The notes under the pieces were generated by a model. That model was not told the DNA's origin. It saw only the letters and a list, made by a program, of their open reading frames with translations, and did not search any database. Positions 4,451 through 36,547 of a stretch of DNA of 36,578 bases are shown here, one piece after another. Position 1 is the stretch's first letter, and every line of letters starts with the position of its first letter. A program made the translations under genes and the position numbers. The DNA is from Sphaeroforma arctica JP610 (taxonomy: Eukaryota). Where the stretch lies: contig NW_014040475.1 of NCBI RefSeq assembly GCF_001186125.1, positions 14,771-51,348 on the forward strand. The letters are read 5' to 3'.

Positions 4451-5440
4451 CGTTCATGTCGAATATGGGTGAGGTCAGATTGTGCATCGGTGGTGGCTTT
4501 GTGATAGTTGTTGCGGTAGGTGATAGCGGTGTTTGCATCGTTCTGAGAATGCGTACTTAAGTGTTTCTCTCACACGCGGGAGTCCCGGTATAGCTTACCG
4601 CTTCTACCGGTAATATTTCTGATAACTCTAATATCAGAAATATTCTAATCCTAATTCCAAAACTCAGTAATTGATTATTCTGGGTTTCGGGGTTTGGATT
4701 GGCTTTTTGTTATTCTGGTCCCTAGATGCTACAGCCCCCCCAACTTTATACTTCTGAGCCTGCGTAGGAGTCGAAAGTGACATCTTACAGTACTAGATTA
4801 TCTAGAGGTTGGTGTTTGTATACAGGAAATAATTGTCCCTTAGGGAGCATAAGATGAAAAAGCTGCCACCAATATATATTACATATTACCGATTAATTAA
4901 ATTTATACTATAACAGGAGTCCTCTACCACGCTCATCGTCGTCAGTCTTGACCGGTGCTCTCGATTGATCTCAACTTGGCGTAGGAAAACGCATCTCAAC
5001 GGTGGCTCTACAGCCGAATCTCTGGTCCTTGTCCCTCTGGTATGTGGGGGGATCATGCTTCTAGGCGAGAAAAGTGGGAGTGTCCTGTGGTGTCAGTGAG
5101 ACTTGCTTAGGTCCCCCGCTTCGTGCGCTGTCTGTGGCTCGCTGATTTTTCATCAGTGCTCGTCGTCGCTGGCTTCTTTGGCCTTGACTGCCTTCTTTTA
5201 CGTCTACGGCGTTGACGGTATGTTGTAATGACAGCAGTATCTGCGATGTCTGATTCATGCGTCCAGGTACGCTCACCATCTGTCCATTGCAGTAGGTCCT
5301 CTTGTGATCCATCACCTCGGATGGATGGCCTGTCGTCGACTATCGAAGAGAACTGAGTCTCTTCGTTTGGTTGAGCGTGATTGTTGGAAGTAAATGCTTC
5401 CGGAGCACTAGCCCTTTTTACGAGGCCAAGTAGCTCATCA

Positions 5441-6213
5441 TGTAATAGACGGGCCTCTACATTAGACTCTATATTATAACCGTACTCTTAAGCAGTACGT
5501 ATATTAAAAACGTACTCTTATTAGTACAAGGAACTTAAGTTTCCTAAATAGTTTTTAATGGTTTTATTTATTAATACCTTATCCATTTTTCATATCAGAT
5601 ATTTGGACGAGGCCATTAAAAGGCCCCAGTAAAATACCAAACATAAGATTTGGTCTATTTCTATGAATAGAACTATATTTACTTTCCAAATCTATTTATA
5701 TCTGAATACTTCGGTAGCGAGATGGCTCAACCGAATATAGGTTTCTAGGGACTATTAAAGTTACCTAGTTTATCCTCCGATCAGCCAACCAGATGTGCCA
5801 GTCTGATGAAGGCTAAGTCGGTAATTCTTGATAAGTGGCAAGTTATTGGTTAATGCAATAACTAAGGACATCAAGAGTATTTTTCTTTGTTCTTTTATTT
5901 TATATTTTTCTAAAGATAGGATTTTATGAGTCTCTCGGATTCGCTCCAACGAAACATATCATATTTTCTAATAAAGCGATAACGAAACACTAAATACAAT
6001 CCCTTCGGCGAAAACAGTACTGAGAGGATTATATATATTCAATGTCTCAGCCTCACAATCCCTCAGAGTATTGCAGTTTTCACGAGGCATACCTAACTTT
6101 ACTAAAAGTCTCATTTCGTTTATTTACTTTGAAATTTTCACGATACTTAGAATTTACCTACGCGTTTATTTACTCTAAGGCGTTAATATCGCCTTGATAG
6201 ACCTAATCTTACA
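5441..6213 (+). mobile_element. Solo LTR, Gypsy family A, inserted in the B2 integrase C-terminal region
   Basis: TGTAA...TTACA; matches 10749-11539; TSD ATCA (5437-5440, 6214-6217). Removing it restores PEYPDSITDELLGLVKRAS (B1: PEYPNSVNDELIGLVKKAS). Confidence 0.92.
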
Positions 6214-6582
6214 ATCAGTGATCGAGTCAGGATATTCGGGGGCTTTAGTTCCATCAAGGTTACAGACAAAATACCCGTTGCCCTCCCTGCATACTATTTT
6301 GTATGGTTCGCCATTTGGTGCTGTTAACTTGTTCATTTCACCTTGATAGCGAACCATGACAAGGTCCCCTTCCTGGAAGTTTACATACTTCTTTTGGTAT
6401 TTTCGATCGTATGCTGCGCGCATCTTTTCTTGATACTGTGCAACATTAATATCTAATTGTGACCTGATGGCTTCTTCTAGATTTTTCTGTCGCTCTTCCC
6501 AAAATACTGTTGTACTGGGCGCGGTCACTGGCTCATTGTAGTCCGTGAGTTGATTCTGTCTGCGACCAAGGTACACATTAAA

Positions 6583-6619
6583 GGGGGGGGGTTTTAGGGT
6601 TTTAGGGTTTAGGGTTTTA
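6583..6619 (+). repeat. Telomere-like tract G9(TTTTAGGG)2TTTAGGGTTTTA at the integrase deletion junction
   Basis: Read directly; absent from the B1 copy. Confidence 0.75.
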
Positions 6620-6620
6620 A

Positions 6621-7040
6621 GTATGGAGACTTAGCTCCTATCTTTGCTACTAATGTGACGCCCCATGGGGTCTTGCCACAAGCCTTCTTGCCTTCTTTGA
6701 GGAAAGTATTGTTTGTGTTTTCTACTAGCATCGGGTCTTCTTCTAGTAAGGACAAGAACTTTCGAAACCACGATTTATTGGGGTAGTAGGGTAGACATAT
6801 TGTGATGCTGGTTGCCTCGTCAATGACTTTGTCAGGACATCAGGTATGAGTTCCCCTGGTGGATTCGCCCATGCATTCCCTTCCTGCGCCCACTTTTGTT
6901 ATAGCGCATCCTGTTCTTTGGTGTAGTATTTATCTGTGTGTGCATTGTGTGCCGATTCAAACAGATCTACTGTGAACTTCCCAAACCGTCGTTCCGCTTC
7001 TTGGTAGAATCTGGGATGTAACATCCAGTCTATAGCTGAT
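6621..7040 (-). pseudogene. Dam-like N6-adenine methyltransferase domain, B2 copy (inactivated)
   Basis: DWMLHPRFYQEAERRFGKFTVDLFESAHNAHTDKYYTKEQDAL*QKWAQEGNAWANPPG...PWGVTLVAKIG; in-frame stop and NPPW changed to NPPG. Confidence 0.8.
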
Positions 7041-7737
7041 ATGGTTATGGGCATGTTCGTTTCCAATATGGTGTACTCTTGGCTATTATGTGTTGCCTCA
7101 TTCGCCATATGTAATACCTTTAACTCTTTAATACTGAAAGTATCTTCATGGAGAGGCGACAACATGTCTGCCATCTGGTTGTCCTTGCCTGGGACATGTA
7201 TGACGGAGAAATGGTGGTGGAACGTTTCTGCTATTCATTTGGCTAGCATTGGGTATAACGTCTGTCGACTGTTCATTTGCATAAACACTTTATGATCCGT
7301 TCACAGTGTTATGTCCCCCCCCTTTGATGTATTCGGAGAAATGTTCCAGGCTGTATACCAGTGCTAGTAGCTCTTTGGTATTTGTGCCATAGCGTTGTTG
7401 TGCTGGATTCAAGCCTTTTGAGAAGTAAAGAATGTCTCTTCTAATCCATCGATGACTTGAAATAAACACCCTCCTATGCCATAGTCACTAGCATCATTCA
7501 TTATTTGAAACGGTACCCTATCGACAGGGTATGCTAACGTCGCTGAACAGGCGATGGCTTCCTTGAGTTCTTCCCACTTATTTATTAGTTCCGGAGTCCA
7601 TAACATGGATATGTTCTGGTTCGTTTTTCCTTTCATTAGGTTCCGAAAGTGTTTCGTTGTGTGAGCAAAGTTAGGGGCATGGTCTCGCATGTTGTTTGCT
7701 AGTCCCACTGCTTTGCCTTTTTGTGTAGCATCCAAGG

Positions 7738-9309: not shown

Positions 9310-10748
9310 CAAGGGCCAGATTATCAGAAAAGTCAATCCTAAACCCTAAACCCAGGATTATCAAATACTGAGTTTCAGATCTAGGATCCAATATTTCTGA
9401 TGATAGAGTGATCAGAAATATAGCGGGATTACCGGTAGATGATACCGGACTCCCGCGTGTGAGAGAAACACTTAAGCAAATAGTGAGTCTAGGGTAAAAA
9501 ATACTAAACACAAATAAAGACTCAATGCGAGTCCTTCAGCCTGGGACTTTATATAGCTGTAGGATTTGCACTTGAGAAGAGGTCTATTGTTTCTTCTGGT
9601 CGTATCTTATAAGCTACTTTCAAACTCTACATTTTTAACAATATCCTTACTGCGGAAAGTCATATAAAACATTAACTTGTTATAAGCACCCCAAGCAAGG
9701 TGGATAGTAAGCCGTAAAAGAAAAATAGATACACGTTATAGAACACTATTCAGAAACGAGCTTTTGTATAAAATCAAGATAGAACAAGACTGCTATGGAC
9801 AAGAATAGAGGAACAAGAAGAAACATATACTCAAGGCAAGGACAAAGAAGAGCTGGGGAAGCTTCTCTCAGAAGAATTGCCAAAGAAAAGGTACGCAATA
9901 TAGTCCACGAGTCCGCTTTGTTAATAACAAGGTAAGCTAAACCGGATACTACCCAGAGGTAAGAAAGTCTAGGTGTGCCCGTGTAAATTCGGCGTGAAAA
10001 GTGTTACTGTGATATATCATCAATGTTGGGGTACTGGAAATCGGAAAAACTATCACAAGTGATAACTCAGCAAAAGAAGACACTCTAGGAAGATACAAAA
10101 AACAATTCCGCAAAGGTAGGAGTATGTTCAAAGGTAATGTGTAAGTTTAAACCAGTTAAAGTCATACAAGACCAACAACCATTACCTACACAAGTAAAGA
10201 ACACAAACCAAACACCAATACATCACCGACAAGAACATGCACATCACAAATGAAGGGCAAGCACATTATGAGCAAGAGGTAAAGGCACTAAACACAGAGA
10301 TACAAGATACAGGTGTAACATCAGTAGGACACTAAAAGTGTTAAAGTGTTAAGAACAAAACAATACCTACATGCTTAAAAAAACAGAGGATTGGGGCTGT
10401 GTACGCAGGCACTAGCAACAAGAACATCACACGTTGACGTGCACAGACAAAATCACATAAGTAAATGAAATCAAATCACCCACAAATAAAATATAAACTT
10501 GAAATCGCACAAGGAATATTACGCACAACAAAGCTGGGCAGAATAATAACTAAAACACTAATTAGCCAAACAGTTAAGAACTTCCCAACAATACATTTAT
10601 AGCACAAGCAGATCAGATCCGCATAATTGATCACAATCACTACAGACTGATAGCGACTGAGGCTAGTAAAAACGATGGCTAGTAGTTAAAACAAAGTAAG
10701 TACAAGAAAATCTGAGAACAAAGAGAACGTGGTAAACATAAGTGATAC

Positions 10749-11539
10749 TGTAATAAGCCGGGCCTCCACAATAGACTCTATGCATAAACGTACTCTTAAG
10801 CAGTACGAGGAACTTAAGTTTCCTAAATGTACTCTTAATAGTACGAGGAACTTAAGTCTCCTAAATGTGCTCTTAATAGCACGAAGAACTTAAGTTTCCT
10901 AAAATGGTTTTAATGGTTTTATTAATTAAATCTTTTCTATTTAACATATCAGATATTTGGATGAGGCCATTAAAAGGCCTCAGTAAAATACCAAACATAA
11001 AAGAGTTGGTCTAGTTCTATTAATAGAGCTTGATTTAATTTCCAATTTTATTTATATCTGAATACTTCGGTAGCGAGATGGCTCAACCGAATATAGGTTT
11101 CTAGGGACTATTAACGTTACCTAGTTGATCCTCCGATAAGCCAACCAGATGTGCCAGTCTGATGAAGGCTGAGTTGGTAATTCTTGATAGTGGCAAGTTA
11201 TTGGTTAAGACAATAACTAAAAACGTCAAGAGTATTTTTATTTTTATTTCTTTTTTCTAAAGATAGGGTTTTATGAGTCTCTCGGATTCGCCCCAGAATA
11301 GAGCGACAACGAAACACTAAATAAAATCCCTTCGGCGGAAACAGTACTGAGAGGATTTTATATAGGCAATGTCTCAGCCTCACAATCCCTCAGAGTATTG
11401 CTGTTTTCACGAGGCAAACCTAACTTTATTAAACGTCTCATTTCGTTTATTTATATCGATATTTACACGATATAGAATTTACCTACGCGTTTATTTATTC
11501 TAAGGCATTAGTATCGCCTTTATTAGACCGAATCTTACA
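10749..11539 (+). repeat. Family A 5' LTR with three ~38-bp palindromic tandem units (10789-10905) and a TATA-like TTTATATA near 11357
   Basis: TGTAA...TTACA; matches the solo LTR at 5441-6213. Confidence 0.9.
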
Positions 11540-15084: not shown

Positions 15085-17400
15085 ATGTGTGGGTTTGTAA
15101 ACTTCTTTTCAGATGGAGTACCACACTTAGCTGACTACCTTAAACCTTTTGGACACTTAAGATGTCATAAAGGCAAACTAGAAGACTTGTGGACTAAAGA
15201 GTGTGATGACGCATTTAAAGCGCACAAACACGCAGTCCAACAAGCCCCAGTTGTACAAGGGCCAGTCGATGGCGTGCCGTTTGAAATAGCAACGGACGCA
15301 TCAAACTTAGCCTTAGGAGGAGTATTATATCAGGTTATAAATAACAAACCTAGATATATACAATTCTTTAGTCGAGCAATGAATGCTTCACAGTTGAATT
15401 ATCCAACTATTAAACAAGAGCTATTAGCCATAGTGACAGCTCTAACACACTTCCGAAATTACTTATACGGAACAGTATTTACGCTGATGTGTGATCAGGA
15501 ATCTCTTCAATATATGAAAGGGATGAAACCCGACTCGCAATTACTGAGTCGCTGGCATGATACAATATCAAAGTTTCATTTTGATATAAAACATCTGCCA
15601 GGTATACATAACCATTTACCGGATATGTTATCACGCTTCGTATCGGACTTTAATAAATCCGTACGTGAGTTACTAGCCACTGACTGGAAGTGTAATCCCA
15701 GGTGGTTTGAACTGGCTCAAAAGATATATGGGCCAAATACCATAGATATGTTTGCTGCACATCATAATGCACAACTATCGAATTACAGGACTTTAAATCA
15801 TCCTATGGGAGACGCCTTTCAAATAGACCTTTCCCAACATAATGCGTGGGCTAATCCATCATGGCAGTTAATTGCCCAGCTATTAAATTATGTTCATATA
15901 CATAAAGCTACCATCACGTTGTGTTGCCCATTACGGAGTAAAGATCCATGGCTCAATAAATTTATCAGCATGATTCAATGCGAGCCAATATATTTAGATA
16001 GGGAAGTAGATATCCTATATCAGGGTACCCGAGCCATCCAGAAAACGCCCTGGAGACATACTATTATATGTCGTATAGGTCCCATTGGAACAACCAAATG
16101 GACCCCTTCTGAAACCTTCCTTTACAAGGTCAAAGAATCAGAGATTCCACTCTCTACCCAATTGAACGTTAAGCAGTTCAAAGGCAACACAGCATTTAGC
16201 GTCTGTGCACAAGAAATACAATCTACTAATGACACTGTTAAGAAGCGTCAGTCTCTAGCTAGGACTCTGTTTAATAGCATAAATTCCAAGCCCGAGGTCT
16301 TTCAAACCTTATTTTTAAAGGGATTAATGAAAGACAATCCTGAAGCGTATACACATATAGTGCGACTATTTAACAAGTCAGGTGACGCTCATGCAAAAAC
16401 AGGACAGGAGTCTGAAAACACTACAGACTTAGAGACCACGCAAGTGAATTCTCAACACTCTACCTTTATTCTGGAAGAGCAGAATGATGAAAACATTCTT
16501 GCTTGGCTGAAGCAACATCATAAGCTGAAGCACCAGAACGTAGTAGAAGCACTTAAAGATGCTAAGCGAAATGGGATCGCGCACCCTAAGCTGGCAACTT
16601 TAGTTGACAGAGTATATCCGTCATGCACAGACTGTGATCTCAATCAGATCAAGCGCTATGGTTTCGCACCGCTTAAGAGTGTGACTGAAGATGTTCCATG
16701 GCGCAGGGACATCATTGATCTGGTTGACCTGCCCACGTCCGAGCACACAGGCAACCGTTACGTATGCCACTTCTTTGATGTGGCGTCACGGTTTAACTTG
16801 CTCTATCCATTAAAAGATAAGAATACGCAGACCGTGGCAGAATTATGTTGCCAAGTCTTTGCTGACCACGGGTGGCCGGGTATTATGTGCACTGATAACG
16901 GTAGTGAGTTCTGCGATGACGTTATGGAATCGCTAGTACTCGTATCAGGCATATGCCATAAGAGAGGTGTGCCATATAAGCCGCAAACGCAAGGCGCGAA
17001 TGAGACGCGCCATAGAAGACTTAAGTTCTTCTTGCGTACTGCATTAACGGATGATGCAGATGATTGGCCGTACCACCTTAAGTGGGTACAAACACAGATG
17101 AACGAGTGTGCTGATCCGGTTACAGGAACTACACCCGCTCACTATTTTCGTGGCAGATATAGTGAGTTACAAATCCCTTTTAACAAGGACGAACCCGATC
17201 ACCATGAGTTACCATGGTTAGAGAAGGTCCAACGTATGTATAACGTTGTATATCCTTGCTTGCGAGAAATACGCAATATAGCCTTATTAAAAAGACAAAA
17301 GCGTTGGAACACTACCAAGAAGATAGCAGATTATCAGGTTGGTGACAGAGTTAACATCCGTCAACGTAATTCCGATGCTACTGTATTGACATCTAAATGA
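15085..17400 (+). CDS. pol: Family A pol C-terminal ORF: RT connection, RNase H, Dam-like MTase, linker, integrase (HHCC and DDE)
   Basis: One 771-aa frame: TDASNLALGG...ELLAIV...CDQESL (RNase H); IDMFAA...WANPSW (MTase, 15682-16080); H..H..CTDC, IIDLVD, TDNGSEF, PQTQGANE (integrase). Confidence 0.93.
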   Translation: MCGFVNFFSDGVPHLADYLKPFGHLRCHKGKLEDLWTKECDDAFKAHKHAVQQAPVVQGPVDGVPFEIATDASNLALGGVLYQVINNKPRYIQFFSRAMNASQLNYPTIKQELLAIVTALTHFRNYLYGTVFTLMCDQESLQYMKGMKPDSQLLSRWHDTISKFHFDIKHLPGIHNHLPDMLSRFVSDFNKSVRELLATDWKCNPRWFELAQKIYGPNTIDMFAAHHNAQLSNYRTLNHPMGDAFQIDLSQHNAWANPSWQLIAQLLNYVHIHKATITLCCPLRSKDPWLNKFISMIQCEPIYLDREVDILYQGTRAIQKTPWRHTIICRIGPIGTTKWTPSETFLYKVKESEIPLSTQLNVKQFKGNTAFSVCAQEIQSTNDTVKKRQSLARTLFNSINSKPEVFQTLFLKGLMKDNPEAYTHIVRLFNKSGDAHAKTGQESENTTDLETTQVNSQHSTFILEEQNDENILAWLKQHHKLKHQNVVEALKDAKRNGIAHPKLATLVDRVYPSCTDCDLNQIKRYGFAPLKSVTEDVPWRRDIIDLVDLPTSEHTGNRYVCHFFDVASRFNLLYPLKDKNTQTVAELCCQVFADHGWPGIMCTDNGSEFCDDVMESLVLVSGICHKRGVPYKPQTQGANETRHRRLKFFLRTALTDDADDWPYHLKWVQTQMNECADPVTGTTPAHYFRGRYSELQIPFNKDEPDHHELPWLEKVQRMYNVVYPCLREIRNIALLKRQKRWNTTKKIADYQVGDRVNIRQRNSDATVLTSK

Positions 17401-18852: not shown

Positions 18853-20348
18853 GTGGGAGCACAAGTAACACTGCCAGAAAGCGAAACAAAACCAGAAAAG
18901 GCAAATACAATGCCAGTCTCACAGACATCTTCTCGTACCACCACTCCACGCAATGGAGAAGGGAGCATGCACATGGATGATGAGTTTACTCCAGCAAGAG
19001 CTCCCATGGATCCAGTGATGAATAAGTACAAGATAGTCTTAGACAAGACCATCTATGAGTAAGAACAAGATAGTCTTAGACAAGAACATCTATGAGCGCA
19101 ACTTCTACATTGTAGATATACTAGTAGACAAGTTGTATGCACAAACAGCGGACATCAGAGCATTCCACAAACTACGCAAAGCAGTCCACGAACAACAACC
19201 CAAGCGATTGATTCCAGTAATATACGAGTGGTCAGTAGAGCTATATAATAAAGCTATGAAGAACTGTGACAAAAGTGATCACGATGAGTGCATTGCGATT
19301 AGTGGCTATATGAGCGAGTAAACGTTAATTAGATCTCACGAAGGGGACAAAGCTTCAGAACCAGAACTGAACAAACTACTCAAGATCCCTAAGTGGCCAG
19401 TAGGCAAATATGTCAGTATGGCTGATTGTCGTGATACAATTGAGTTTGTATCTGTAGCTAAAGACTTGTTTGCGAGCACAAACATGCCATTGATACAGTA
19501 CCTCTCACTAGCACAAGAGCTGCTCAGACAGACAGACGCAAAGGAAGTATCGCGCACTGCACTCAACAATATACGTAGTACCCAAAAACTTTGGCAAGAC
19601 TTCATTGATGTGGAAGACTACAACATATTAATCATTGACAATCTACGTCGCACTCCAGTAGACTATCTACTAGAGAAGTGACTCGACGACTTTTATGACA
19701 CTCGTATGAATGTAGAAGTACGGGCCGCACGGTTGTGTCGCACAATGTTTGAGTTGGAGAAGCGTTCCAAGGGCACGGAGAGAGAGACTATCAATTGGCA
19801 ACTCCTCAAAGCATCACGTTACCTAAGTACTAGTCATGTACGGTTTGCAAGCGGAAGCAGACAAACTGATCAAGGCTCAGACAAAACCAGACGGTAGTAA
19901 GGTATTTCATGAGCTCACAGAAGGCATGATCAGACAGGCAACATTACTACAAGCTCATCGCAAGCGTGAAAACAAGCGAGCGAGAAATGCAACTGTTCCT
20001 GAACCGCGAGCCAATCGCCCAAGACTGGAGATCCCTCCAGGGGATCCACCCAGAGGTGGGGGACCACCGAGAGGGGGTGGCCCACCAAGAGGTGGAGGTC
20101 CACCAGGAGGACAAGGCAGAGGTCGTCCCATAGGACAGGCCACTGACACCCCAGCAACACGAGGACCACGACCGTGCCCACACTGTGGTATAAACCCTTC
20201 ACCACATGCGTTCAGCAAGTACCCCAACAAAGCGGAAAACAACCGTTTCAGGGCAGATCGAGCAGAGAAACAGAACCAAACCGTCCATGTTGACCTGTTG
20301 GCCAATATAAATGGCAACAAGGTGCAAGAGATGGATGAAGATCTATGA
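18853..20348 (+). pseudogene. gag: Gypsy B1 gag with PPRGGG repeats and a CPHC-x6-H-x4-(C>Y) knuckle
   Basis: ORF pieces 18853-19062, 19055-19321, 19418-19681, 19706-19897, 19836-20348; lies upstream of the protease. Confidence 0.8.
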
Positions 20349-22359
20349 AAAGCTTGGTGGTCGGAGGCTAACATGATAAACATGGTAGACATTGTGAATG
20401 CACACACTGATGAAGAAACGTTGTTAATAAATGCGAATGATATTGCTTACACACCCATTTCTTTACTTATAAATCCACGAGACCAAAGATTGCGCATAGA
20501 CATACAATTAATGGCACCACATATAATGCACTAGTAGATTCAGGAGCACAACACTCTTGTATGGACAGAAGTGTAGCAACTGAACTATACTCGCACAATC
20601 AGATGCAAGAGTACAACGCACAGGTTCCACTGAAGTATGTGATATAAACTACGGGAGGCAGAAAACCCTCAAACTGCTTCGAGATACTTGACCTCCCAGA
20701 CATGAAATCACCAATTCAATTAGGAATGGACATTCTACCATACTTGGGCATATACTTAGCAGGGATAATTAACCTACAATTACCAACAGATGTCAAGTGG
20801 GCATCACTTCTTACACCACATGAAGAAGACCCTAAACATGAACAGGTGTAAAGGATTCAGAGAACCACTATCAGACTTGTTCGAACAAAATGGTCAGATA
20901 CCACCAGATGTACACTGCAATCTATCAGATTCAGTGGTAGAGATACCAAGTCAAGAGGTCAAAGCCGAGAATATTCGTCATGCTAAAGTGAACTTTGTTC
21001 CACACAAATACATCCCACAAACAGATGAAAATGTTCAGAAATGGGTCAAAGATGGACACATATACAAAAGAACAACATCCACACAAGTGAACCTGCCACT
21101 ACTATCCACAGGAGAATTTGAACAGACAGGTCTGTTAAAGAAGGTATGCACATGTTTAGACTAGAGAGAAGTAAATTATCAACATGAACAAGACAAATTT
21201 GTTTTACCAAAGATAAAGGAAATACTCCACAACCTACAGGGTGCGCAATTCTTTTCTAAATTAGACTTAACAGGAGGCTTCCACCACTTTGAAGTACATG
21301 AAAATAGCCAACACTTCTTCACATTTTCATAGAGAGGAGCGCAATACTCACTCAAGTCAGCTCCATTTGGACTGCACTCGGTAGCAGCACAATTCCAAAG
21401 AGTGATGGCCAACCTCCTCATTGACATCAAAGGGGTACAAGTATATGTCGATGACATAGTCATCGCTGGTATGACAGAAGAAGAACATAGACAAACAGTA
21501 CGCGAAGTCGTCAAAAGACTTAATGCTGCTAACTTCAGGCTAAATCACAACAAGTGTGCGTTTGCGGTCAAGACAGTCAATATACTAGGCGTCAAAGTAA
21601 CCACCAAAGGGCTCAAAATAGACTCTGAGAAACAGAAACGCATGATTGACCGGCCTTTACCAAGAACCAAACGTGACTTACATCGAGCAGTCGGTCTAGC
21701 AAATTACATACGAGACCACATACCTCAGTTTGCACACATAACGAAACACTTCCGCAATCTCATGAGAGGCAAAATGAATCAAAATATAGCCAATCTTTGG
21801 ACACCAGAGCTCATTAAGAAATGGGAAGAACTCAAAGATGCCATTGCATGCTCAGCAACTTTGGCGTACGCAGTAGATGGAGTACCATTTCAGATCATGA
21901 ACGATGCAAGTGACTATGGCATAGGAGGTTGTCTGTTCCAAATTGTAAATGGAGTCAGAAGAGATATACTCTTTTTCTCAAACGGGCTCAACCCTGCACA
22001 ACCAAGATATGGGACAAATACTAAAGAGTTGTTAGCACTCGTATACAGTCTGGAACATTTTTCAGAATACATCAAAGGTGGCGATATACCATTGTGGACA
22101 GATCACAAAGCGTTATGCCAGATGAACAAGCAGCAAACGCTGCATCCTATGCTCGCGAAATGGATAGCGAAAACTTTTCATCACCACTTCACTATCATAC
22201 ACGTGTCAGGCAAAGATAATGAAGTTGCTGACATATTGTCACGACTACACGAAGACACATTCTACATCAAAACATTGAATGTGTTGAAAGAAGCCAATGA
22301 GCACATACACAATGGTCAAGAATGCGCTGACCTAGAAACAAACATACCCATCCTAGTGT

Positions 22360-22751
22360 CTGCCATATACAGGAAACTACATCCACGGCGCTTTCAAGAT
22401 GCAGAAGGCCTGTTCGGTAAATTCACCATCGATTTATTTGCAGCCACACACAATGCTCAGACCGTAAAGTTCTACACCAAAGAACAAAACGCGCTCCTAC
22501 AAAAGTGGGGAGATGAAATAAATGCATGGGCGAATCCTCCCTGGGAACTAATACCAGACGTGTTAGACAAAGTCATAGAGGAAGCCACAAGCATTACAAT
22601 ATGCGTCCCGTACTACCCAAACGCAACGTGGTTCCCCAAATTGATGTCATTACTTGAACAAGATCCGATGATAGTCGAAAACACAAAAACAACACGCTCC
22701 TAGAGAACGGCACAACAGCCCGTGGCAAAATACCATGGGGGGTCACATTAG
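22360..22751 (+). other. Dam-like N6-adenine methyltransferase domain, B1 copy, both motifs intact
   Basis: FGKFTIDLFAA (IDLF from 22428), NAWANPPW (NPPW 22533-22544), in frame with RT/RH in the 433-aa ORF. Confidence 0.88.
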
Positions 22752-23511
22752 GGAAAATATTATTTATTTCAAAAATGGCAAGTATGTATGATACAATGTA
22801 TGAACATATGGTATGGCTCTCATAGTCGCTGTAGTGGTTCAGGAAAGATTGATGGGAAGAAGTGGTCAGTAAATTCCCGTTTGAAGCTTGGGCCAAGTGA
22901 GTCGACAATGGAAGATATGTGCTGAGTCAATTCAAGCCGGTGTTGACAAAACACTGTTACTATCGAATGTTCCATATATTTGCTTGCTGACCTACTAGTG
23001 GTACGGATCGGGTCTGCGCCGTGTAGTGCCGCGGAATGGGTTAGTGCAGAGTACGAAATACCGAGAAGGACCAGGTTATCCGTCATAATCCGGTCGAAAA
23101 GCGAGGATGGGGGTAAGCCAATGCCGCACCAGACCACAGATGAATTCGGTATGTGTTGGCTGGTCTGGATCGGAAGTATCATAGTCGGAACCAACAAGCG
23201 CGATGATTTGGGTTGAACCGATATTTGGAAGTAGTACTTTAACAGCGTGATTAGCCGGGGTATGGGGAACATCTGTTAATGTGTCAGGGACGGGTGAGGG
23301 TACGGTGGTTCTTCAACATGCTGGAGAAAAGATCCAAGGTGTTCGTGGAGGGTCCAGATACCGTGGAAGTCATGGCACTCCTGTAATTGCTGAAGGAGGT
23401 CAGGACCAATGGGCGGCAGTTTCGGGCCTACCAGGATGTGTCGAATCAGTTGTTGGATGCAGGTAAAGTGGCTGGTAGTGAACTTGTGGCTACCGGGGCA
23501 GACAGGGCAGA
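22752..23511 (-). mobile_element. 5'-truncated non-LTR (LINE-like) insertion
   Basis: 10-bp TSD GTCACATTAG (22742-22751, 23512-23521); minus strand encodes CPVCPGSHKFTTSHFTC (CCHC) and ends in AAATAAATAATA; removal restores PWGVTLVSKIG. Confidence 0.72.
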
Positions 23512-25359
23512 GTCACATTAGTATCCAAGATCGGCACAAAGTCACCATACTTTGACCAAAAACTAACACACCCTGCAGTGAACACTGCGTCCATACACAT
23601 CACGGACAATTCCGCCGAGCTAGACACAATCAAGTATGAAGACTGAGCCACGCTCATAGCTCAACACCGCACAGTAGGTCACTAAACTGTCGATGAAACA
23701 GTAAACAAGCTCACACTAGATGGCCACACATGGTCTAGACAAAAGGAACATGTCAACCAATATATTGAGGGCTGTGTGCTCTGTCTCAAAAACTAAATTC
23801 ACAAAAAGGGATTCCACCCTTTACAATCAATAACGGCCGCATTCCCGGGCGACAGGATACAAGTGGACACCATCGGTCCCTTGATAGACTGGAATAGGGG
23901 CAACACATACGTTCTGGTATGGCTTGATGTACATTCTTCATATGCCATACTAAGACCGATGATGGACAAATCGGCAGCCACTGTTGCACGAACACTAGTT
24001 CCAATCATGCGTGAAGATGGATATCCACCAGTCATACAGACGGATCAGGGCACAGAATACGTGAATGACATACTCTCAAAATCATTGAGCAGGCACCGTT
24101 ACAACACTTAGTGTCCAGACCGTATCAACCCAAGGTAATGGGAGCAAATGAACGCTCACACAGAGACCCCATTCCTTTACTACGGAAATTTGTTGAACAA
24201 AATCCAGGCAACTGGTGCTCACGCCTCCCATTTGTCCAAATGGGCCATAACCTCCGTTCATCACGCAGACACAAATCACCAAGGTTCAATGTCTACTATG
24301 GGCGACGACAAAATCAACTCACCAACTATGACACAACAGTCAGTGCACCAGGTACAACAATACCATGGGAAACACGACTACAGCATCTAGAGGAGTCAAT
24401 ACGACCACAACTAGACGCCAATGTAACACAATATCAAGAGAAAATACGTTCAGCATTTGATCGCAAATACCAAGAGAAGTATGTACACTTCCAAGAAGGG
24501 GATAAGTGATGGTTCGCTTCCTAGGTGAAATGAATAAAATGACTGCAAAAAATGGAGGACCATACAAGACAGCAAGCAAAGAGGGCAACGGATATTTCGT
24601 CCGTAACCTTGATGGAACTCGTGCCCCCGAATATCCCAACTCAGTCAATGATGAGTTAATTGGTTTAGTCAAGAAGGCTAGCGAATCCGAGGAATTTACT
24701 ACCAACAATCAAGTCCAACCATCAGAAGTAACTCAATTCACCTCTATACTAGACCACAGAGAATCCACAAGAGGTGGAGGAACCCAGGATTAACTACTAC
24801 AATGGATAGATGGGGAGCGCACATGGACACATGAATCAGACATCGCAGATCCAGATATTCTTACGATATACCGACAGCGTAAACGACGCAAGCGAAGGCC
24901 ATCAAGGTCGAAGAAGTCAACAGCAACCAGCACTGATGAACGATCAGCGAGCAACTGGCAGTGCACGAGGCGGGGAACTTACCCAACTTTCACTGACACC
25001 AAAGAACTCTCCCACTTTTCTCACCTTGAAGCATGCTCTGCCCACACACCAGAGGGATAAGGACCAAAGACTCGGTTGAGAGCCACCGTTGAGATGCGTT
25101 TTCCTAAGCCAAGTTGAGATCAACCGAGAGCACAGGCCAAGACTGACTCCGATGAGCGTGATAGAGTACTCCTGTTATTTAGTATAAATTAATTTACTCA
25201 GTAATATGTTAGAATGGTTAATAGCGGCAGGTTTTTCATCTTATGCCCCCTAAGGGACAAGTTTTTCCTTGTACAAAAACACCAACCTCTAGATAATCTA
25301 GTCCTATAAGATGTCACTTTTTACTCCTACGCAGGCTGAGAAGCATAAAATTGAGGAGA

Positions 25360-25692
25360 TGTAGCATCCAGGGGCCAGAATATCAGAAAAGCCAATCCTA
25401 AACCCAAAACCCAGGATCATCAAATACTGAGTTTTGGATCTATGATCCATTATTTCTGATGATAGAGTGATCAGAAATATAGCGGGATTACCGGTAGATG
25501 ATACCGGGACTCCCGCGTGTGAGAGAAACACTTAAGCAAATATTGAATCTAGTGTAGAAAATACTAAACACAAATAAAGACTCAATGCGGGTCCTTCAGC
25601 CTAGGACTTTACCTAGCCTGTAGGATTCGCACTTGAGAAGAGGTCTATCGTTTCTTCTCGTCGTATCTTATAAGCTATTCTCAAACTCTACA
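25360..25692 (+). repeat. Family B1 3' LTR
   Basis: TGTAGC...CTCTACA, directly after the PPT. Confidence 0.92.
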
Positions 25693-26654
25693 CCACCTCT
25701 TCGCATTTTCATCCGTTTTCGGGATATACTAGTGCGGTACAAAGTTGACTTTGGTGTGCCTCATGTATCTGACATTAATTTCATCTGGGGACACTGTGAC
25801 TGTAGAGCCTGGTAGGTTGCGATGTACGTCAAGAGATACGTTCGCGTTGGTATCTAAGAGGTCTGCAACTCTCAGAAACCTTCTTGTTCATGCTCTGGGT
25901 CTTCCTCATGTGGAGTGAGTAGTGATTCCCATTTTGCATCTATTGATTTAAGTGGATTTACTAATCCTGCAATGTATATACCTATGTATGGAAGGATGTC
26001 CATACCTAGATGTATTGGTGCCTTCTTGTCTGGTAGATCCAACACTTCAAAACACTGACAGCTTTTCTTCCTTCATAATTAATGTTACATACTTGGGGTG
26101 GATAATAGGGTTTTTTAATCCTCGCGTCTGTTTATGCTAGTTGTATGTAGCTCGGTTGCTGTCTGACTGAGATATATAGTTCAGTTACTATGCTCTTGTC
26201 CATACATAATCGTTGTGAACCTCGGTCTACTAGGGCGTTGTATGTGTTGCCATTGATTCGTATGTCAATGTGTAGTCTTTGCTCTCGTGGTGCGGGAAGT
26301 GAGGATAAAGGCTGGCAAAACGTCTGGCCTGACACCCAGGTCAATCATGTTTGTTTCCGCCCACCACTTGTTTCAGGACTCATCGCTATCTGTTATCTCT
26401 TCTATCTTCCCGGAGGTATTGGATAGTCTAGCTACTTGCACATCGTTCTGGACACGCTCCTTCACCTTCTTGTTCTGATCTGATGCCTTCATAGGACATT
26501 GACTAAATCGATGTGGGGCTGGTGACACCACACAATGTCGCCCCTTTCTTCTCTTGGGGTTGTCCTATTAGTTTGGGTTGTATTGGTGTGCCATTTTCTG
26601 GATTGTGACGTTTGGTTGTATAGGTGGTGGCGTTCTGAGGCTCACTGTGCGTGG
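25693..26654 (-). pseudogene. Gypsy B2 gag end, protease and RT N-terminus
   Basis: HCVVSPAPHRFSQCP; PREQRLHIDIRINGNTYNALVDRGS; KVNFVPH, collinear with B1 at about 20000-21045. Confidence 0.85.
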
Positions 26655-29600
26655 TGTGGTCAGATATACTCAATAAGGTTTATTAGGTAATTTGAGGTTT
26701 ATTTTGAGAAACGACATAAACCCAGTTTAGGGTTTATGATCAAATTTGTACACATGTCAAATAATAGAAACAATGGTTGATTTATTATTCAATAAAAGTA
26801 CAACGTATCCCCGTGTATGAGGGGAGTACGTTGAGAAACTGTTATCTTTGCGTATTTGACTGCATTTTTAACAAGCTTACTAGTTGCACTTTATTGGAAG
26901 TAAAGTTAGAACCGTCATAGTATAAGGAAGACTGAAGAATGTCTTACATTTTTTTCGCTAAGATTCGAGAATCAACATTGAGACGATGGGTGAACCCACC
27001 AATGGGTCGCATGAGAAGCGAAAATATATCAACAGGGCCTTTCGAAGCAGACCAACAACTGAAGAGTGAGGATAGCGGGTTTGACAGTAGTGAGCCGAGC
27101 TTGCCATCTTTGTTGTCAAACTCGGAGAGCGAGCCTGAAGATGGTGAAGAAGATGAGGACCACACGAATAAAGAAGTAATCCAAAAACGGGAATCACGTA
27201 ATGAAATACACCGACCAATGAACATGGGACAACAGAGATTGGGAAGATGGTATATGCACAATATCATTAGAAGAGAAAGGATATATGAATATGTAAATAA
27301 GCTTATCCGGCGTCAAGACGAACCACTAACACCATTAAGACGAGCAGCAAGTGAATCTGGAATAACGGCTATACGCGGACATGAACATGACGAAGGAAAG
27401 AATGATGAGCAATCAACATGGGGATTATATACCGAACAAGGTACGTCTCTATGGACATGGAGGAGAAGTGACACGTTACGTTAAGATATAGGCAGAATTA
27501 AGTATGAGAGTGGGTACCAATGTAAACGTGTATGTATTGATAGTATGAGTACACGGAGTAGTGTTACATAACGAGCGGCGCAGGATCCTCATGGTCCTGA
27601 GGCACTAGATAACCGACGTGAGAGATTGTCCGGAGTGATCTATTCGCAGCAGCAGAATCAACGATTCGAGGCGGACGCAATTGCGAGAATCGTTGCTGCG
27701 GCAATCATCGCTAACAACTCCAACGACACCAGTGAACCCAATGCCGGTTAATGACAAGGAGTCTCGTCCAACACTGGAAAGTATTGTGGCGGACCGCCAA
27801 GTACTTCACGCGCGGATGCTTAGACTATCCGAGGAGTTGTGTAGAGCAGTCGAGGCGGATGATTTACCACGGGCCGAAGCCCTACGGGGGGGTACTAGAA
27901 AACTTTACAAGCTACACATGAATCTCGCCCGGTAACCTAGCATGAGCTTTGGGAACCGAGAAGCTGGCCATAATGACCGTCGAATAGATACCAACTACAC
28001 AATGCCTTGGAGCGAGACACTAAGGAAGCCCTTTTGGAGGCGTTGAAGAACGCGCAGATCTCGGGGTAATTTTATAGGGTTCGTAGCCATTTCAAGGCTG
28101 AGCAGTCCACCTTGGATTACATTATGTCCAACCACCAGCGGTTAGTATATTTAACACCGGGGATACAAATAACACAGATTTGTTCTCACGAAACTCATGC
28201 CACAGTCGACCTTACGTTCCGTAAGTTGGCGAAAGGACACTCTCGGGTTTCCAACATACCAATTATGGAACAGATGAAACAGCTCATGGAGAATCACAGA
28301 CGTGCCCATAAACGCAGCCAGGCAGATGCAGAGTTCAAGCAAAGTCGTTATTGGAAGATTCTCTTGGCTCCCGAACCTATAAACGGACACTACAACTACA
28401 CACCAACTGGCACTTGATGGAGACCGACGAATTGTTGCAGCTTCTTAGCCCAGACATTCAGGAGGCACAGACGAGAGCCACTGCGCGGATGTCAAACCGT
28501 CGACCCCACAACAACGATCACCAACGGGGGGACACACAGTTGCAGCGTGCGACACAGACAGCCACCAACCATGGTAACAACGTACACCAACGTCGAGCCC
28601 AACTACGACATGTGGCGGGTGCCAGGCACAGGCGCCACCAGGATTACGGCATATCCCTCGCTGTCACAATTATAAGGCAGCGACACAGGACAACCGTGTC
28701 CAATATCAGTTGAACGGTCGCATGTTCCGAGCCCTAGTAGATTCGGGCGCAAACATAAGCTGTATATCGCAGGCATCCGCAGAGGCACTAGGCCTACCAA
28801 TTTTCCCGGCTCGTCCTGATTCATATATATACCTGGCGGCGCGCACTCGGCGACTGGGGACGACGGAGGTTATACCAATTAGATATAGAACGTCCATAAC
28901 GAAAGGTTCGTTAGAATTGATGAATCTGCCAGTAGGAATCGACGAGATCAAAGGGGTGGACATCATTCCTGGATTGGGACTATACTTAGGTGGCCTACAA
29001 TCACCATTGGCTCCTCGGCGACAAGCTCCGGATCTAACCCAGCCTGAAGGCATACGCACGGAACTGAAATCAGTCCTGGAGGTGAACGCGGCGATTACTG
29101 ATAGTACACACTGCCGGTTGGAAGGGAGTGAGGTAGCCATACCGGTTTCTCGAGAACAGGCGATGAATATGCGGCGATCAATGAGGAACTTCGTGTCAGA
29201 CCGGTGAATACCATATGTAGAAGAACAGGTACAGAGCAAGAGATATTGCACAACATTAGACATCATCTCGGCGGCATATCATCGTCTACCGATTCACCCA
29301 GATTCGCATTACCTGTTCAGTTTCACATATGGACGCCACCAGTATTCATTTACGTCGGCGCCATTTGAATTACACGTCTTCGCCCAACAGTTCCAACGAA
29401 CCTTGAGTACAATATTGGACGCCTTCCCGTGCAGCATTATATTGACGATATAGTGATAACAGGAGATGACTACGAAGAACATATAGCTACGGTTAAGGAG
29501 GGGATACGCCGACTCACAAATCACAGCTTCAAGTTGAATCCGGATAAATGCCACTTTGCAATCGGGGAGGTTATGATCCTAGGAAAGAAGGTATCGGCAG

Positions 29601-30208
29601 CGGGTATTGATATCGATTTTGAGAAACAGGCGAAGCTGTTGGATTGGCCGACACCGCAGCGCTACAAGGATAGCATCGGCGTTAGGGTTGGCGAGCTTTT
29701 TACACGAACATCTTCCCAATTTTGAGCACATAGTGGCGCCACTCCGAGAATTCTGCAAGTTGAAACCAAACGAGTTGATTGGATCACGTTGGGAATCCCG
29801 CCACGCGGAGGCGTGGACGGCTAAGAAGACGGCGATTGACAATGCGGTAGCCTTACACTTTCCCGTGGAGGATATACCTCTTAATCTGGAGACGGATGCT
29901 ATTGACTATGACATCGGGGGAGTGCTGTTCCAGTGGGTCGATGAGAAGAAGCACTATTTCATGTTTTTCAGTCGCTCAACCAGGCACAACAGAACTATAC
30001 GACGCCAATAAAGGAACTTTTGGCGCTGGTCTATAGGCTAACCCACTTTCGGGGATTCCTCGACGGACAGCGTTTTGCGGCTTTCACGGACCACAAGGCG
30101 TTAGTTTACATGAACACGCAGTTGAAGTTGAACCCCATGCTCCAGCAGTGGCACGACATAATAGCCCCGTTTAATTTCACTATATCGCATATACCAGGAG
30201 GGGGGGGA

Positions 30209-31538
30209 ATGTACTGTCCGCGAAGGGACAGCGGAAGGTGGCGCACCGGAAGTATTCTACGCCGACTGCTGGCAGCTGTTTCCGAATTACTTTACGCAAG
30301 CACAGAAGATATTCGCCCCCAATGACGTGGACGTTATTGTGCACGATAGTTGGGGTATCGGTTTAAATAAGGTTTGCGATATTCCCTGCGGTCAGAGTAG
30401 ACGCGCGGTCTGGATCTGCGATGCTTGGATCGGCAATCACGAGCAAGGTGACCTGGTTTGCTACAATTAAAGCACTTTCGTTCTGCTGTGGCCGAAAGTG
30501 CTCTCTCTCCTCCTCGATTCTCTGTATTGGAGGCCGATGTTTGGATTTCCTCCATATCAAATTTTCGGAGATATTCGCAGAGCTCCTCGTAACTCATGAC
30601 GTCAGTATCAACTGTGTTGAGATGAGTTCTTGCTGCTTTAAAACGTTCATTGAGACCTTCCTTCAAGACGGTCTACAAGACGGTGGAGCCTCGCGTTTCT
30701 CCAATTCCATTTTCTTCAAATTAATATCACCAATAAAGGCCTCCAGAGTTTCGTTACTCTTCTGTGTTTTTGCCCAGAGCTCCTTTCTCAAACGGCCGAT
30801 TCCTCCCTGGGTGTTAATCTTAAACTTGGTTTCCAATGCTTTGAAGAACGCGTAGGGTTCCTTCATGATATGGAGTAAACCCTGTTGAAGTCGTCGAGAG
30901 ATCGTACGATAAATTGGCTCAGACGCGGCTCCACGATCCTCTTGAGTAAATGTTTCACGTTGAGTCTCATAGTAGTCGTCGGGTGGTGTAGCGGCTTCGA
31001 TCAGTTGTAGGCGACCCTGTTTCATCAGGATCATATCCAATTGAGCTTTCCATTGGTCCCACTGGATCGGCTTATCCAAAATCATTAGTTTAATTTTTGG
31101 TTTCAAATCGAAGCTTGTCATTCTCAGAGTAGAGGTAAAACGGACCTAATAAGTTATTGTTCTCAGATATTAAAGTATCTTAAAGTGTTTTAAGTTTTAA
31201 GTGAATAGTTCTCATTTATTTGATTCGAGTCCCTGCTTTTATATACATTGGACTCGTAATCCTTGAGCCATTGAAAAACACCTCTTAAGGTGAAAAAGGT
31301 TCTCACTTAATATATGATCCAATCCAAAGGCGGCGTCGCCACGTCTTCAACTGATCGTGGCTTCCATTGTAATCTTTGGCCTTATACGTTTAGATTGTAC
31401 TCTTCTGATATTTAGGGATGCCCTTATGCCCATCAGAGATTTTCTATAATGATGATTCCGTACTCCCGGCACTTCGGCTCCGAGATTAATTTACATCGGT
31501 AATATTTCTGTGTCACTCTCTGAGTTTAGATTCTCTCC
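30209..31538 (-). mobile_element. gag: Ty1/Copia fragment: 5' LTR (about 31155-31538), PBS and frameshifted gag with CCHC knuckle
   Basis: ORFs 30663-31121 (WDQWKAQLDMILMKQG) and 30334-30666 (CFNCSKPGHLARDC); PBS ACTTATTAGGTCCG (31141-31154); boundaries approximate. Confidence 0.82.
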
Positions 31539-31599
31539 TTGGTTGATGCTGGAATAAACCTTGTTGAGCCTCCGGTGTTTGACCGTAGTTTTATGCTTG

Positions 31600-31795
31600 G
31601 TAAATAGTTCTGGTTTACTGTGATCAATAGACGTGTTTGCAACACCGGGGGATGTGCAACTACCTCGATTCTGGACATATGGCGAGCAGGGAGGTGCCTT
31701 TCGGCATAATTGGGCGTTGATTAACGGATGGATGAATCCGCCCTGGAAACTTGTACACAAGATGTTTCGGTAGATCAAGTCCGATGGCGCGTCGT
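31600..31795 (+). pseudogene. Dam-like methyltransferase domain, family C copy (not in the ORF track)
   Basis: Manual translation from 31624: SIDVFATPGDVQLPRFWTYGEQGGAFRHNWALINGWMNPPWKLVHKMFR*IK (NPPW 31735-31746). Confidence 0.85.
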
Positions 31796-32991
31796 ACGAA
31801 TCCTTTCAAAATCGGTTAGGATTTGCCGAGCCCCGGTATTTACCACGACCTCGTTCTCTGGACACGGCACGAGATATCTCAATAGCGGTAACCAGTGCGG
31901 AGGCTCAGTCAGCGTTTGTCAATGCGTGACCGGAAGAATAACAACGACGCACACAACTGACCCAAGCCCAACACGAGCAAGGACACCATGACGCGACGGA
32001 CACAGTGACACAACTCCAACAGAATGGCCACGTATGACCGGGGGCACTGGAGTTAGCAACTGAAGCTAAGCGACAGTGCAGTGCGTGCTTGGGTCAGGTC
32101 ACACTGAAGAAGGGGGTTCAACTGTTGGTCAGTATAGACGCTAGTTATCCGTGGGACCACATTCAAGTAAATTACATCCCAATGCCTATTGTCTGCAGTC
32201 GGAAGAACAAGTACGTTCTCCATGTTCTAGACATCGCATCCGGGTATTCGATCCTACGCGCCACACCTGACATATCAAAGGAAACCACAGCGCAGACGTT
32301 GATTGCAATTTTTGGAGAACACGGGTTCCCCCGGAAGATGCAGTACGATATGGGTACTGAATTTGTTTATAGTGTAGTGGCGCTCATTGTTCGGGAGGTT
32401 GGGATGATGCACGAAATCTCACCACCATACCGACCCCAAGTACTAGGGGCCACGGAACACCGACACAAGGAGATTTTCCGATCAAATCAGATCTGCTGTG
32501 AGACTACGCCCCAAGCTTGGAATGAGCGACTGCCATTTACGATGCTTCACCAAAACCTTCGCGTGTCTCGCCGACACAAAAGTGCTCCTTTCAGCGTATA
32601 TTTTGGACGCCGCCATGTCCCTTCGCGGATTTTACCGACAATATCCCAGAGAATCAGCCAGTTACGAATGAGACGTGGGCTCAACGACTCGATCGCCTCC
32701 AGGATAATATCTTAACAACGCTACATAGATTGACGATGCGTTACACAGATACTTTGACGAATAATTTCGACCGCCTCCATGCAGATGGTTTAGTGCACTT
32801 TGAGGAAGGCGACGTGGTGATGGTCAAATCGGAAGGCGGCACATCCAAGGCAATGCGCCCCCTATGTCGTGAAAGGCTGGAATTGACAAGGGCACGATCT
32901 GTCTCATAGGGATGGTTCGACTCCGAATTCAAGGGTCGTCCGGATAGGGTTGAACTGATCCGTTTGGTATACCGTAGTACCGATCCCCCGC

Positions 32992-33210
32992 TTGACGAGA
33001 GTCTGTGGTGCGATGACGGTTCAACGTTTTCGACATATCATTGAACATCGGGTTAATGATGACACGGGCAAGACGGAGTATCTCGTACGATGGCGCAAAG
33101 GGGATCCTACCTGGGAAATGGCAGAGGCGCTTGACGATGCTAATGACATCGTGGCATACCATAAGGATACACAAACACGCTCCCGCAAGCGCCGACGAGA
33201 AGCGGTGTAA
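32992..33210 (+). other. Chromodomain at the C-terminus of the family C integrase
   Basis: FRHIIEHR...GKTEYLVRWRKGDPTWEMAEALDD. Confidence 0.9.
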
Positions 33211-36150: not shown

Positions 36151-36547
36151 GTGCGGCCTCACTGTGCCAGATGTCGAACCAATAGAACGGACCGATAAAC
36201 CGTTTGCAGAACGGAGCCTGTGCAGTGCAAATGTACATATTGATGGGTTATGTTTGTGACAGAAGAGTGTGAACAAGGTGCCTCTTCTCCATATGAAAAT
36301 TTACAATCAAAGTATGTGCAGCTACAGGGATGTCTGTGAACTAGAGTTAAAAAAAAGTCTTGTCTTTTGGGTATGTATTTGGATCACTAATTCGAGTGAG
36401 CGAAGCAGAAATGTGTAAAGTTTGTGCCAATCCCAGTCGTTATTTGTATCGGAGAAACCACACTAGATCATAGTTAATCACAACAAGTACATGACTGACA
36501 ATGCATCTGTTGCAATACATGAAATTACACAACACACACATTCCGTA

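Follow-up and report, generated by a model that had tools for sequence, protein, structure and literature searches.

A Dam-family methyltransferase domain with a predicted PCIF1-like fold in decayed Ty3/Gypsy retrotransposons of Sphaeroforma arctica

Introduction

What is the role of a "Dam" methyltransferase in a retrotransposon? The question is raised by a stretch of the Sphaeroforma arctica JP610 genome (36,578 nucleotides, contig NW_014040475.1, positions 14,771 to 51,348; hereafter the window, in whose own numbering all coordinates are given). A long terminal repeat (LTR) retrotransposon copy in this window, here called B1, carries a Dam-family domain between RNase H and integrase. B1 is a decayed Ty3/Gypsy copy and almost certainly one of the DAM-LTRs. 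Fernandez-Moreno et al. (bioRxiv 10.64898/2026.05.21.726589) described these elements, among them a lineage from the ichthyosporeans S. arctica, Abeoforma whisleri, and Pirum gemmata. The architecture of the ichthyosporean lineage is already published, and B1 is an example of it, not a discovery. In the same preprint, DAM-LTRs were linked to hosts with N6-methyladenine (6mA) in their DNA (9 of 13 species), insertions in S. arctica and A. whisleri showed higher 6mA and expression, and the domain was assigned to Dam by EnzBert and read as a partial Dam of the T4/E. coli type. The authors proposed that it acts on RNA:DNA intermediates and that AMT1 maintains the mark, and stated that the ichthyosporean lineage is without chromodomains. 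The terms "PCIF1", "CAPAM", and "purifying" are absent from the main text of that preprint, the supplements of which may treat these points.

Results and Discussion

The B1 element and its methyltransferase domain

The B1 features, with the evidence for each, are as follows.

19322..20348, + strand: gag-like remnant broken by stops (open reading frames 19322-19681 and 19827-20348)
20370..20842, + strand: frameshifted remnant of an aspartic protease (ALVDSGA; tblastn with residues 3-173 of the intact relative P0002)
20850..21884, + strand: reverse transcriptase (RT) with the connection, YVDD motif at 21444 and two premature stops, 21162 and 21330 (Pfam RVT_1)
21885..22247, + strand: Ty3/Gypsy-type RNase H (Pfam RT_RNaseH, E 1.1e-22; motif positions)
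22362..22751, + strand: Dam/PCIF1-type N6-adenine methyltransferase domain (PF05869, E 9.7e-14; structure model of P0002 and its fold matches)
22742..22751, + strand: left copy of a target-site duplication, GTCACATTAG (exact 10-mer at 22742 and 23512)
22752..23511, - strand: nested 760-bp insert, flanked by the 10-bp target duplication
23512..23544, + strand: right target duplication and last methyltransferase residues (VTLVSKIGTKS; tblastn with the P0002 domain)
23640..24652, + strand: integrase with zinc-finger region, DDE core, and C-terminus (Pfam rve, E 3.4e-11)
24734..24870, + strand: divergent chromodomain ending Pol, with a stop at 24791 and approximate limits (homologous stretch in P0001 and P0003; profile and fold searches)
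24980..25692, + strand: 3' LTR-like repeat with a CA end, start not fixed (matches to other copies in the window)

The central open frame (21402-22703, + strand) has 433 codons from GTG 21402 to TAG 22703; measured from stop to stop it covers 21333-22703 (456 codons). RT, RNase H, and the Dam-family methyltransferase follow one another in this frame. RNase H is marked by DASD (21903), KELL (22023), TDHK (22098), and DILS (22230), and the methyltransferase by IDLFA at 22428 (DLFA at 22431-22442), NPPW at 22533-22544, and PYYPN at 22608. Pfam finds RVT_1 (E 8.8e-15) and two RNase H models, and its Dam match is not a chance one, because it reaches 51.8 bits against a curated cut-off of 28.1. The first-pass annotation, made from the sequence alone, had described a methyltransferase with an intact NPPW in frame with RT and RNase H, and both the motif and the PF05869 match bear this out. 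The 433-residue reading frame that it drew from YVDD through RNase H into the methyltransferase is confirmed too, but only as a remnant: it opens inside RT, past the stop at 21330, and a frameshift near 22685 brings about its end. The annotated span of 21402..23560 does not hold as one feature: the second half (22752-23511) is an unrelated insertion that splits the last strand of the domain.

At the 5' end of B1, the stretch 19322..20348 is presumably gag, a label taken from its position. It has a tblastx match to a second B-type gag at 1782-2306; the 19827 frame, the only gag-like frame scanned, gave no significant Pfam family, and no 5' LTR partner was found upstream. The 3' LTR-like repeat is preceded by a purine-rich run, and its matches in the window are confined to 4556-5105 (84%), 9310-9631 (93%), and 1228-1553 (76%).

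Intact relatives supply the reference for this decayed copy. P0001 and P0002 encode a Pol of 1288 residues with protease (gag-asp_proteas at 47-138 of P0002 in Pfam), RT, RNase H, Dam, and integrase in one frame, and are 73% identical to B1 in the methyltransferase domain. Aligned to P0002, B1 covers 1271 of 1288 positions, with 153 of 176 identical residues in RT and 133 of 161 in the integrase core. A search with residues 230-820 of P0002 returned at least 116 proteins; the four that carry PF05869 rank first, and this word-limited search missed several relatives that were found later. With the B1 domain as query, HMMER gave 1697 matches at E<=0.001, the best 150 of which were examined. Among those listed, the closest named proteins are SARC_09892 (86%) and SARC_05614 (87% over half the domain) of S. 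arctica, followed by Abeoforma whisleri proteins (42-44%). Pfam scans of 27 longer matches among them identified 17 with a Gypsy-type RNase H or integrase, and 10 that are DIRS-like or without those domains. NPP[W/F] is kept in 17 of 17 database proteins of the same methyltransferase clade, a count biased by the fact that the proteins were found by similarity to the domain, and in 98 of 149 further matches among those listed, the other 51 being without it in the matched domain. Across an alignment of 61 rows, D24, F26, N31, P59, P60, and W90 are conserved at >=90%. The ESM Atlas contributed only unnamed eukaryotic clusters and one cluster with 14% PF05869. A separate observation concerns P0262, a database protein of 2382 residues. 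Its single frame has Dam before RT, an unusual, chimeric order; the full series is protease, APE-type endonuclease, Dam, RT, RNase H, and integrase zinc finger.

The domain in other copies of the window

The same domain occurs in a sister copy of B1 (B2) and in two further Gypsy families (A and C).

4556..7712, - strand: B2, fragmented sister copy of B1 (DNA alignment to B1)
6615-7036, - strand: B2 methyltransferase, NPPG, one stop and one frameshift (tblastn and motif comparison)
15676..16092, + strand: family A methyltransferase, NPSW, placed after RNase H and before integrase (Pfam Dam, E 0.0095)
30264..31800, + strand: family C methyltransferase, interrupted by a 1.3-kb insert, its second piece with NPPW (31624-31755 by tblastn, E 3.5e-5)
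33013-33204, + strand: family C chromodomain ending Pol (Pfam Chromo, E 4.2e-7, above the curated cut-off)

B2 aligns in inverted orientation to B1 (6650-7712 against 22751-21686, 73% DNA identity). Family C (28680-33204, + strand), which was absent from the first-pass annotation, also has its methyltransferase between RNase H and integrase, and the two pieces of the domain together reach 56 bits to methyltransferase matches in phmmer. All four methyltransferase copies in the window are broken, and their motifs read NPPW in B1 and C, NPPG in B2, and NPSW in A. The deviating motifs look like decay of dead copies, because P0131, the nearest relative of family A, has NPPW and all 17 clade rows keep NPP[W/F]. 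The statement that B2 conserves the protein of B1 holds for the constraint described below, but not for NPPG, the stop, and the frameshift within its domain. Similarly, family A shares with B1 the position of the domain between RNase H and integrase, but not the motif.

Constraint on the methyltransferase domain

B1 and B2 were compared as a single pair in the codon frame of B1, stop and gap codons being set aside. In the methyltransferase domain (124 of 126 codons) the ratio of the proportions of nonsynonymous and synonymous differences (pN/pS) is 0.21 (95% interval 0.14-0.30), the Jukes-Cantor dN/dS is approximately 0.085, and the differences are distributed 24/14/62 over the three codon positions. 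Because the Jukes-Cantor dS is undefined (saturated) for RNase H and for the linker between RNase H and the methyltransferase, pN/pS serves as the comparable figure; it is 0.15 in the RT connection, 0.13 in RNase H, 0.29 in the integrase C-terminus, and 0.30 in the chromodomain. The methyltransferase is constrained like the rest of Pol, and the selection acted on active ancestors, not on the dead B1 copy. Purifying selection in place of a neutral capture had been suggested beforehand, with a comparison of dN/dS between this domain and RT and RNase H as the check; the ratio obtained is not near 1, and its interval lies far below that value.

Common descent of the domain

Two trees bear on the origin of the domain. 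The RT-RNase H tree (LG+G4, quick search) holds 49 of 79 prepared rows, the 30 rows without a methyltransferase domain having been dropped, and its DIRS labels were assigned from domain content. A, B1, C, P0001-P0004, and two Abeoforma proteins fall into a clade of 16 rows, all of them domain-bearing (support 96 in the Shimodaira-Hasegawa-like approximate likelihood ratio test, SH-aLRT), and the elements lie inside a Gypsy side of 45 rows that is split from four DIRS-like rows with an SH-aLRT of 100. The methyltransferase tree also has 49 rows, including 25 DIRS-like ones picked by length and position. It unites A, B1, B2, SARC_09892, and three named Abeoforma proteins in a clade of 20 rows (100/99), with the DIRS-like rows as its sister group. 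Since A and B stand in one clade in both trees, the likeness of their domains is best read as common descent from one old capture. Both trees give families A and B a single origin of the domain, which they have in common with the Abeoforma elements, and this domain appears to have been kept while gag and LTRs diverged beyond recognition. The dissimilarity of the latter between A and B1, noted earlier by eye, was recovered by searches: the two gag frames of family A match nowhere else in the window (tblastn E<=1), and the 3' LTR-like stretch of B1 has no match in the ends of A. Identity between A and B1 is 48% in the RT pieces, 38% in RNase H, and 40% in the methyltransferase domain.

Family C is less clear. 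Its broken domain of 79 residues is placed beside P0185, an outside element, with a long branch, and an approximately unbiased (AU) test does not reject a position inside the A/B clade (p 0.34). Family B is the closest relative in RT, RNase H, and integrase, but what is left of the C methyltransferase has its highest scores with other elements, and family C may have had its domain replaced.

Predicted fold

An AlphaFold model of the intact P0002 domain (137 residues, built from the 61-row alignment) has a predicted local distance difference test score (pLDDT) of 95.5. The Foldseek matches that pass E<=0.001, six in all, are without exception PCIF1/CAPAM (best 1.8e-5). Against 48,161 representative chains, VIA-align also ranks PCIF1 first (Z 10.8, root-mean-square deviation 2.7, 129 residues aligned), followed by the rRNA methyltransferases DIMT1, ErmE, and KsgA (Z 9.3-9.0); E. 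coli Dam and T4 Dam reach Z 8.3 each, over 105-108 residues. The motif-I region of the domain aligns with the FECFASPLN stretch of PCIF1. When solved structures were searched with a sequence profile, no methyltransferase match was significant. The model predicts a compact fold, dependent on S-adenosylmethionine (SAM), that is closest to PCIF1, and a shared fold does not show function.

Relation to known systems

B1 and its relatives have the Ty3/Gypsy order of protease, RT, RNase H, and integrase. As in the ichthyosporean DAM-LTR lineage, a Dam-like NPP domain lies within the Gypsy Pol, and the B1 domain groups with S. arctica and A. whisleri proteins in one clade in both trees; this link to the lineage runs through named database proteins of S. 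arctica and Abeoforma, not through the preprint's own sequences. Two differences stand out. Families B and C have a chromodomain, whereas the preprint describes the lineage as lacking one, which is a description and not a criterion of the clade. Moreover, the preprint reads the domain as a Dam of the T4/E. coli type, whereas the model obtained here is closest to PCIF1.

Three other assignments were considered and set aside. EpiLTRs combine Dam with a C5-cytosine methyltransferase and a chromodomain, and no cytosine methyltransferase family was found in P0001-P0003 at E up to 5. DIRS elements have a tyrosine recombinase and neither DDE integrase nor protease, whereas an rve integrase and an aspartic protease are present here. 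Finally, an orthologue of PCIF1/CAPAM is not indicated, as the methyltransferase part alone aligns and P0001-P0003 have no WW family.

Both of the latter systems nevertheless resemble B1 in part. According to Iyer et al. (2016, PMC4738411), DIRS1 elements carry the same domain family directly after RNase H; B1 differs in its Gypsy RT, aspartic protease, and DDE integrase, which stand in place of a tyrosine recombinase, and in a catalytic motif that its clade has kept intact. With PCIF1/CAPAM (PDB 6IRX, 6IRW) the modelled domain would share the fold over 129 of 137 residues, the NPP-aromatic catalytic loop, and the motif-I stretch, whereas it is embedded in a polyprotein, has neither WW nor helical domain, and is only 15-18% identical.

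A chromodomain at the end of Pol

Chromoviruses are Gypsy elements with a chromodomain at the integrase C-terminus. Families B and C also appear, on profile and model evidence, to end in a chromodomain after the integrase. Besides the Pfam match in family C listed above, the B relatives P0001 and P0003 have weak Chromo matches in the same place (E 0.004-0.015, below the cut-off), while Pfam Chromo detects none in P0002 and none in the 33-residue piece of B1 before the stop at 24791. A profile of four rows, one of them family C, matches HP1/CBX and cpSRP43 chromodomains (E 2e-8 to 6e-8; CBX1 E 6e-8). The P0001 stretch was modelled as three strands and a helix, and the matches listed in its fold search are chromodomain proteins, none at E<=0.001. 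Unlike in chromoviruses, the RT does not group with Tf2/chromovirus-like rows, and the Pol frame of family A has no Pfam Chromo match.

What the domain may do

The reading that we favour, at somewhat less than even confidence, is that the methyltransferase acts on the element's own replication intermediates. The domain would enter the virus-like particle with Pol and methylate adenines in single-stranded or RNA:DNA intermediates, new insertions would arrive carrying 6mA, and host AMT1 would maintain the mark and keep the insertion in active chromatin, this last step being the preprint's model. Catalysis, substrate, and benefit are inferred here. Purifying selection, motifs kept across the clade, and the raised 6mA and expression at insertions speak for the reading. 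It is also consistent with the order of protease, RT, RNase H, methyltransferase, integrase, and chromodomain in one frame of the intact relatives, and the best solved match, PCIF1 and not E. coli or T4 Dam, may point to a single-stranded or hybrid substrate.

Several points weigh against it. The low pN/pS comes from one pair with synonymous sites close to saturation (pS 0.69), and the linker between RNase H and the methyltransferase (38 codons) has a value near that of the domain (0.26, 95% interval 0.14-0.42); as the linker is also low, the ratio indicates a constrained protein, not catalysis. Identity to PCIF1 is low and the profile match to it is not significant (E 0.17), its lead over the next row in Z is 1.5, no solved structure of the PF05869 phage family was among the fold matches for comparison, and the 137-residue model aligns to the methyltransferase part of PCIF1 only (chain range 493-652), not to its helical domain. 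The latter is tied to substrate and cap binding in one review (PMC8287941), which, like another (PMC11550742), covers PCIF1 structure and substrate order. DIRS1 methyltransferases were judged likely inactive by Iyer et al. (2016). Finally, the 6mA enrichment at DAM-LTRs is a correlation at ApT sites, the motif of the host enzyme, and expression of the domain in Dam-deficient E. coli, the sole published assay, gave no rise in genomic 6mA (Fernandez-Moreno et al.).

This negative assay is also compatible with an RNA methyltransferase. A PCIF1-like enzyme could mark the element transcript at a cap-adjacent or internal adenine and aid its stability, translation, or packaging, while AMT1 would lay down the DNA 6mA because the insertions are transcribed. 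The predicted fold fits this alternative, with PCIF1/CAPAM as the best solved match, RNA m6A enzymes next, and the motif-I alignment, as does the placement of DIRS1 methyltransferases in the PCIF1 clade (Iyer et al., 2016). However, the domain has no counterpart of the helical cap-binding or WW domain of PCIF1, Pfam groups it with phage DNA methyltransferases, and the link between DAM-LTRs and 6mA hosts speaks for DNA; we regard this alternative as rather doubtful. A narrower proposal, made tentatively and with more against it than for it, is that the Gypsy "Dam" is a minimal PCIF1-type enzyme, accompanied by a chromodomain, that works in the particle on single-stranded RNA or on the RNA:DNA hybrid supplied by RT and RNase H, not on duplex DNA. 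Such an enzyme would explain the outcome of the E. coli assay.

An unlikely reading is that of a module without catalysis, one retained because it binds nucleic acid, SAM, or a host protein, or because Pol needs it to fold and be cleaved correctly. The failed heterologous assay, the probable inactivity of DIRS1 copies, the 51 of 149 more distant listed matches without NPP[W/F], and the similar pN/pS of the linker would all agree with such a role, but the motif persists in 17 of 17 clade members from lineages with RT pieces only 48% identical, and nonsynonymous differences are proportionally fewer in the domain (pN 0.147) than in the linker (0.251). More improbable still is a Dam of the classical kind, with duplex DNA as substrate and a sequence motif as target, for example in the LTR promoter of an integrated copy. 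The Pfam Dam match, the EnzBert assignment, and the 6mA enrichment accord with it; against these stand the E. coli result, the poorer match of the model to E. coli and T4 Dam than to PCIF1, and the apparent lack of a separate target-recognition lobe, suggested by the small size of the model. A neutral passenger, captured once and decaying, can be dismissed despite four broken copies, two of them without the motif, as the pN/pS interval refutes it, intact in-frame relatives exist, and breaks also occur in RT, RNase H, and integrase, as expected of dead copies.

Decay of B1 and the nested insert

B1 is a dead copy: RT contains stops, the reading frame is shifted, and 760 bp are inserted into the methyltransferase domain. 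Relative to P0002 it has six stops (21162, 21330, 23644, 23683, 23794, and 24791) and several frameshifts. Three of these stops (23644, 23683, 23794) lie in the integrase, which has further frameshifts near 24078 and 24504; the methyltransferase frameshift near 22685 is seen against other copies.

The insert is flanked by the 10-mer GTCACATTAG, which is present twice in B1 (22742 and 23512) and once in B2. The insert-free form, with 22741 joined to 23512, was recovered in contigs of all four public runs examined. The summed depth of the insert is approximately 25-100 times that of the B family, a summed depth being no copy number. One end of the insert is fixed with mixed flanks and the other continues into shared sequence. 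Its minus frame contains a CCHC-like knuckle (CPVC..TSHF.C) and matches six proteins, five of them named S. arctica. The insert is likely the 3' end of a 5'-truncated long interspersed nuclear element (LINE; non-LTR) of very high copy number, a label that rests on the knuckle and on the make-up of P0286; we take the underlying motifs to be those of LINEs, and Pfam found no LINE family. A Mutator-type insert, which the 10-bp duplication could suggest, was set aside: an inverted repeat is lacking at the right end, past which other copies continue. Several annotated gene models of S. arctica, e.g., SARC_07390 and a G-protein beta model, have taken in the LINE-like 3' end (22752-23511, - strand), and such models may be annotation artefacts.

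Further repeats in the window

Additional B-family pieces include an LTR end followed by gag (1228-2306, + strand), a lone LTR end (9310-9631, + strand) 93% identical to that of B1, and, directly after the 3' repeat of B1 and in opposite orientation, a protease-to-early-RT fragment of another B-type copy (25687-26314, - strand; 67% DNA identity to 20475-20863). The integrase tail of B2 is interrupted by an insert of approximately 770 bp (5441-6213), a sister copy of which (10749-11539, 86% identical) lies upstream of family A. At the truncation point of B2 are tandem CAGCC/CAGCT pentamers (7837-7955), adjoined by a 43-bp match to the 3' region of family A (7758-7800). The 1.3-kb insert in the family C methyltransferase (30335-31629) has GACGT on both sides as a 5-bp duplication, starts with TATTG, and ends with CAATA; its minus strand holds a gag-like frame with a CCHC knuckle (30334-31145), and we presume from its motifs that it is Copia-like. 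A C2H2 zinc finger array with HTGERPYAC linkers at approximately 90-bp spacing (35694-36300, - strand) is apparently broken by frameshifts. No tRNA genes were found in the window, and a literature search on caulimovirus Dam returned nothing relevant.

Implications

To the published description of DAM-LTRs this locus adds a codon-level signal of selection on a retrotransposon "Dam", a chromodomain where the lineage was said to have none, and a third domain-bearing family in the window. The predicted structural likeness to PCIF1 also suggests which substrates to assay after the failed test on double-stranded DNA. If the intermediates are methylated, the transposon would arrive already marked with the active-chromatin signal of its host. 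If the tentative proposal of a PCIF1-type enzyme together with a chromodomain is true, ichthyosporean elements would write an adenine mark of their own and, on integrating, read the chromatin of the host.

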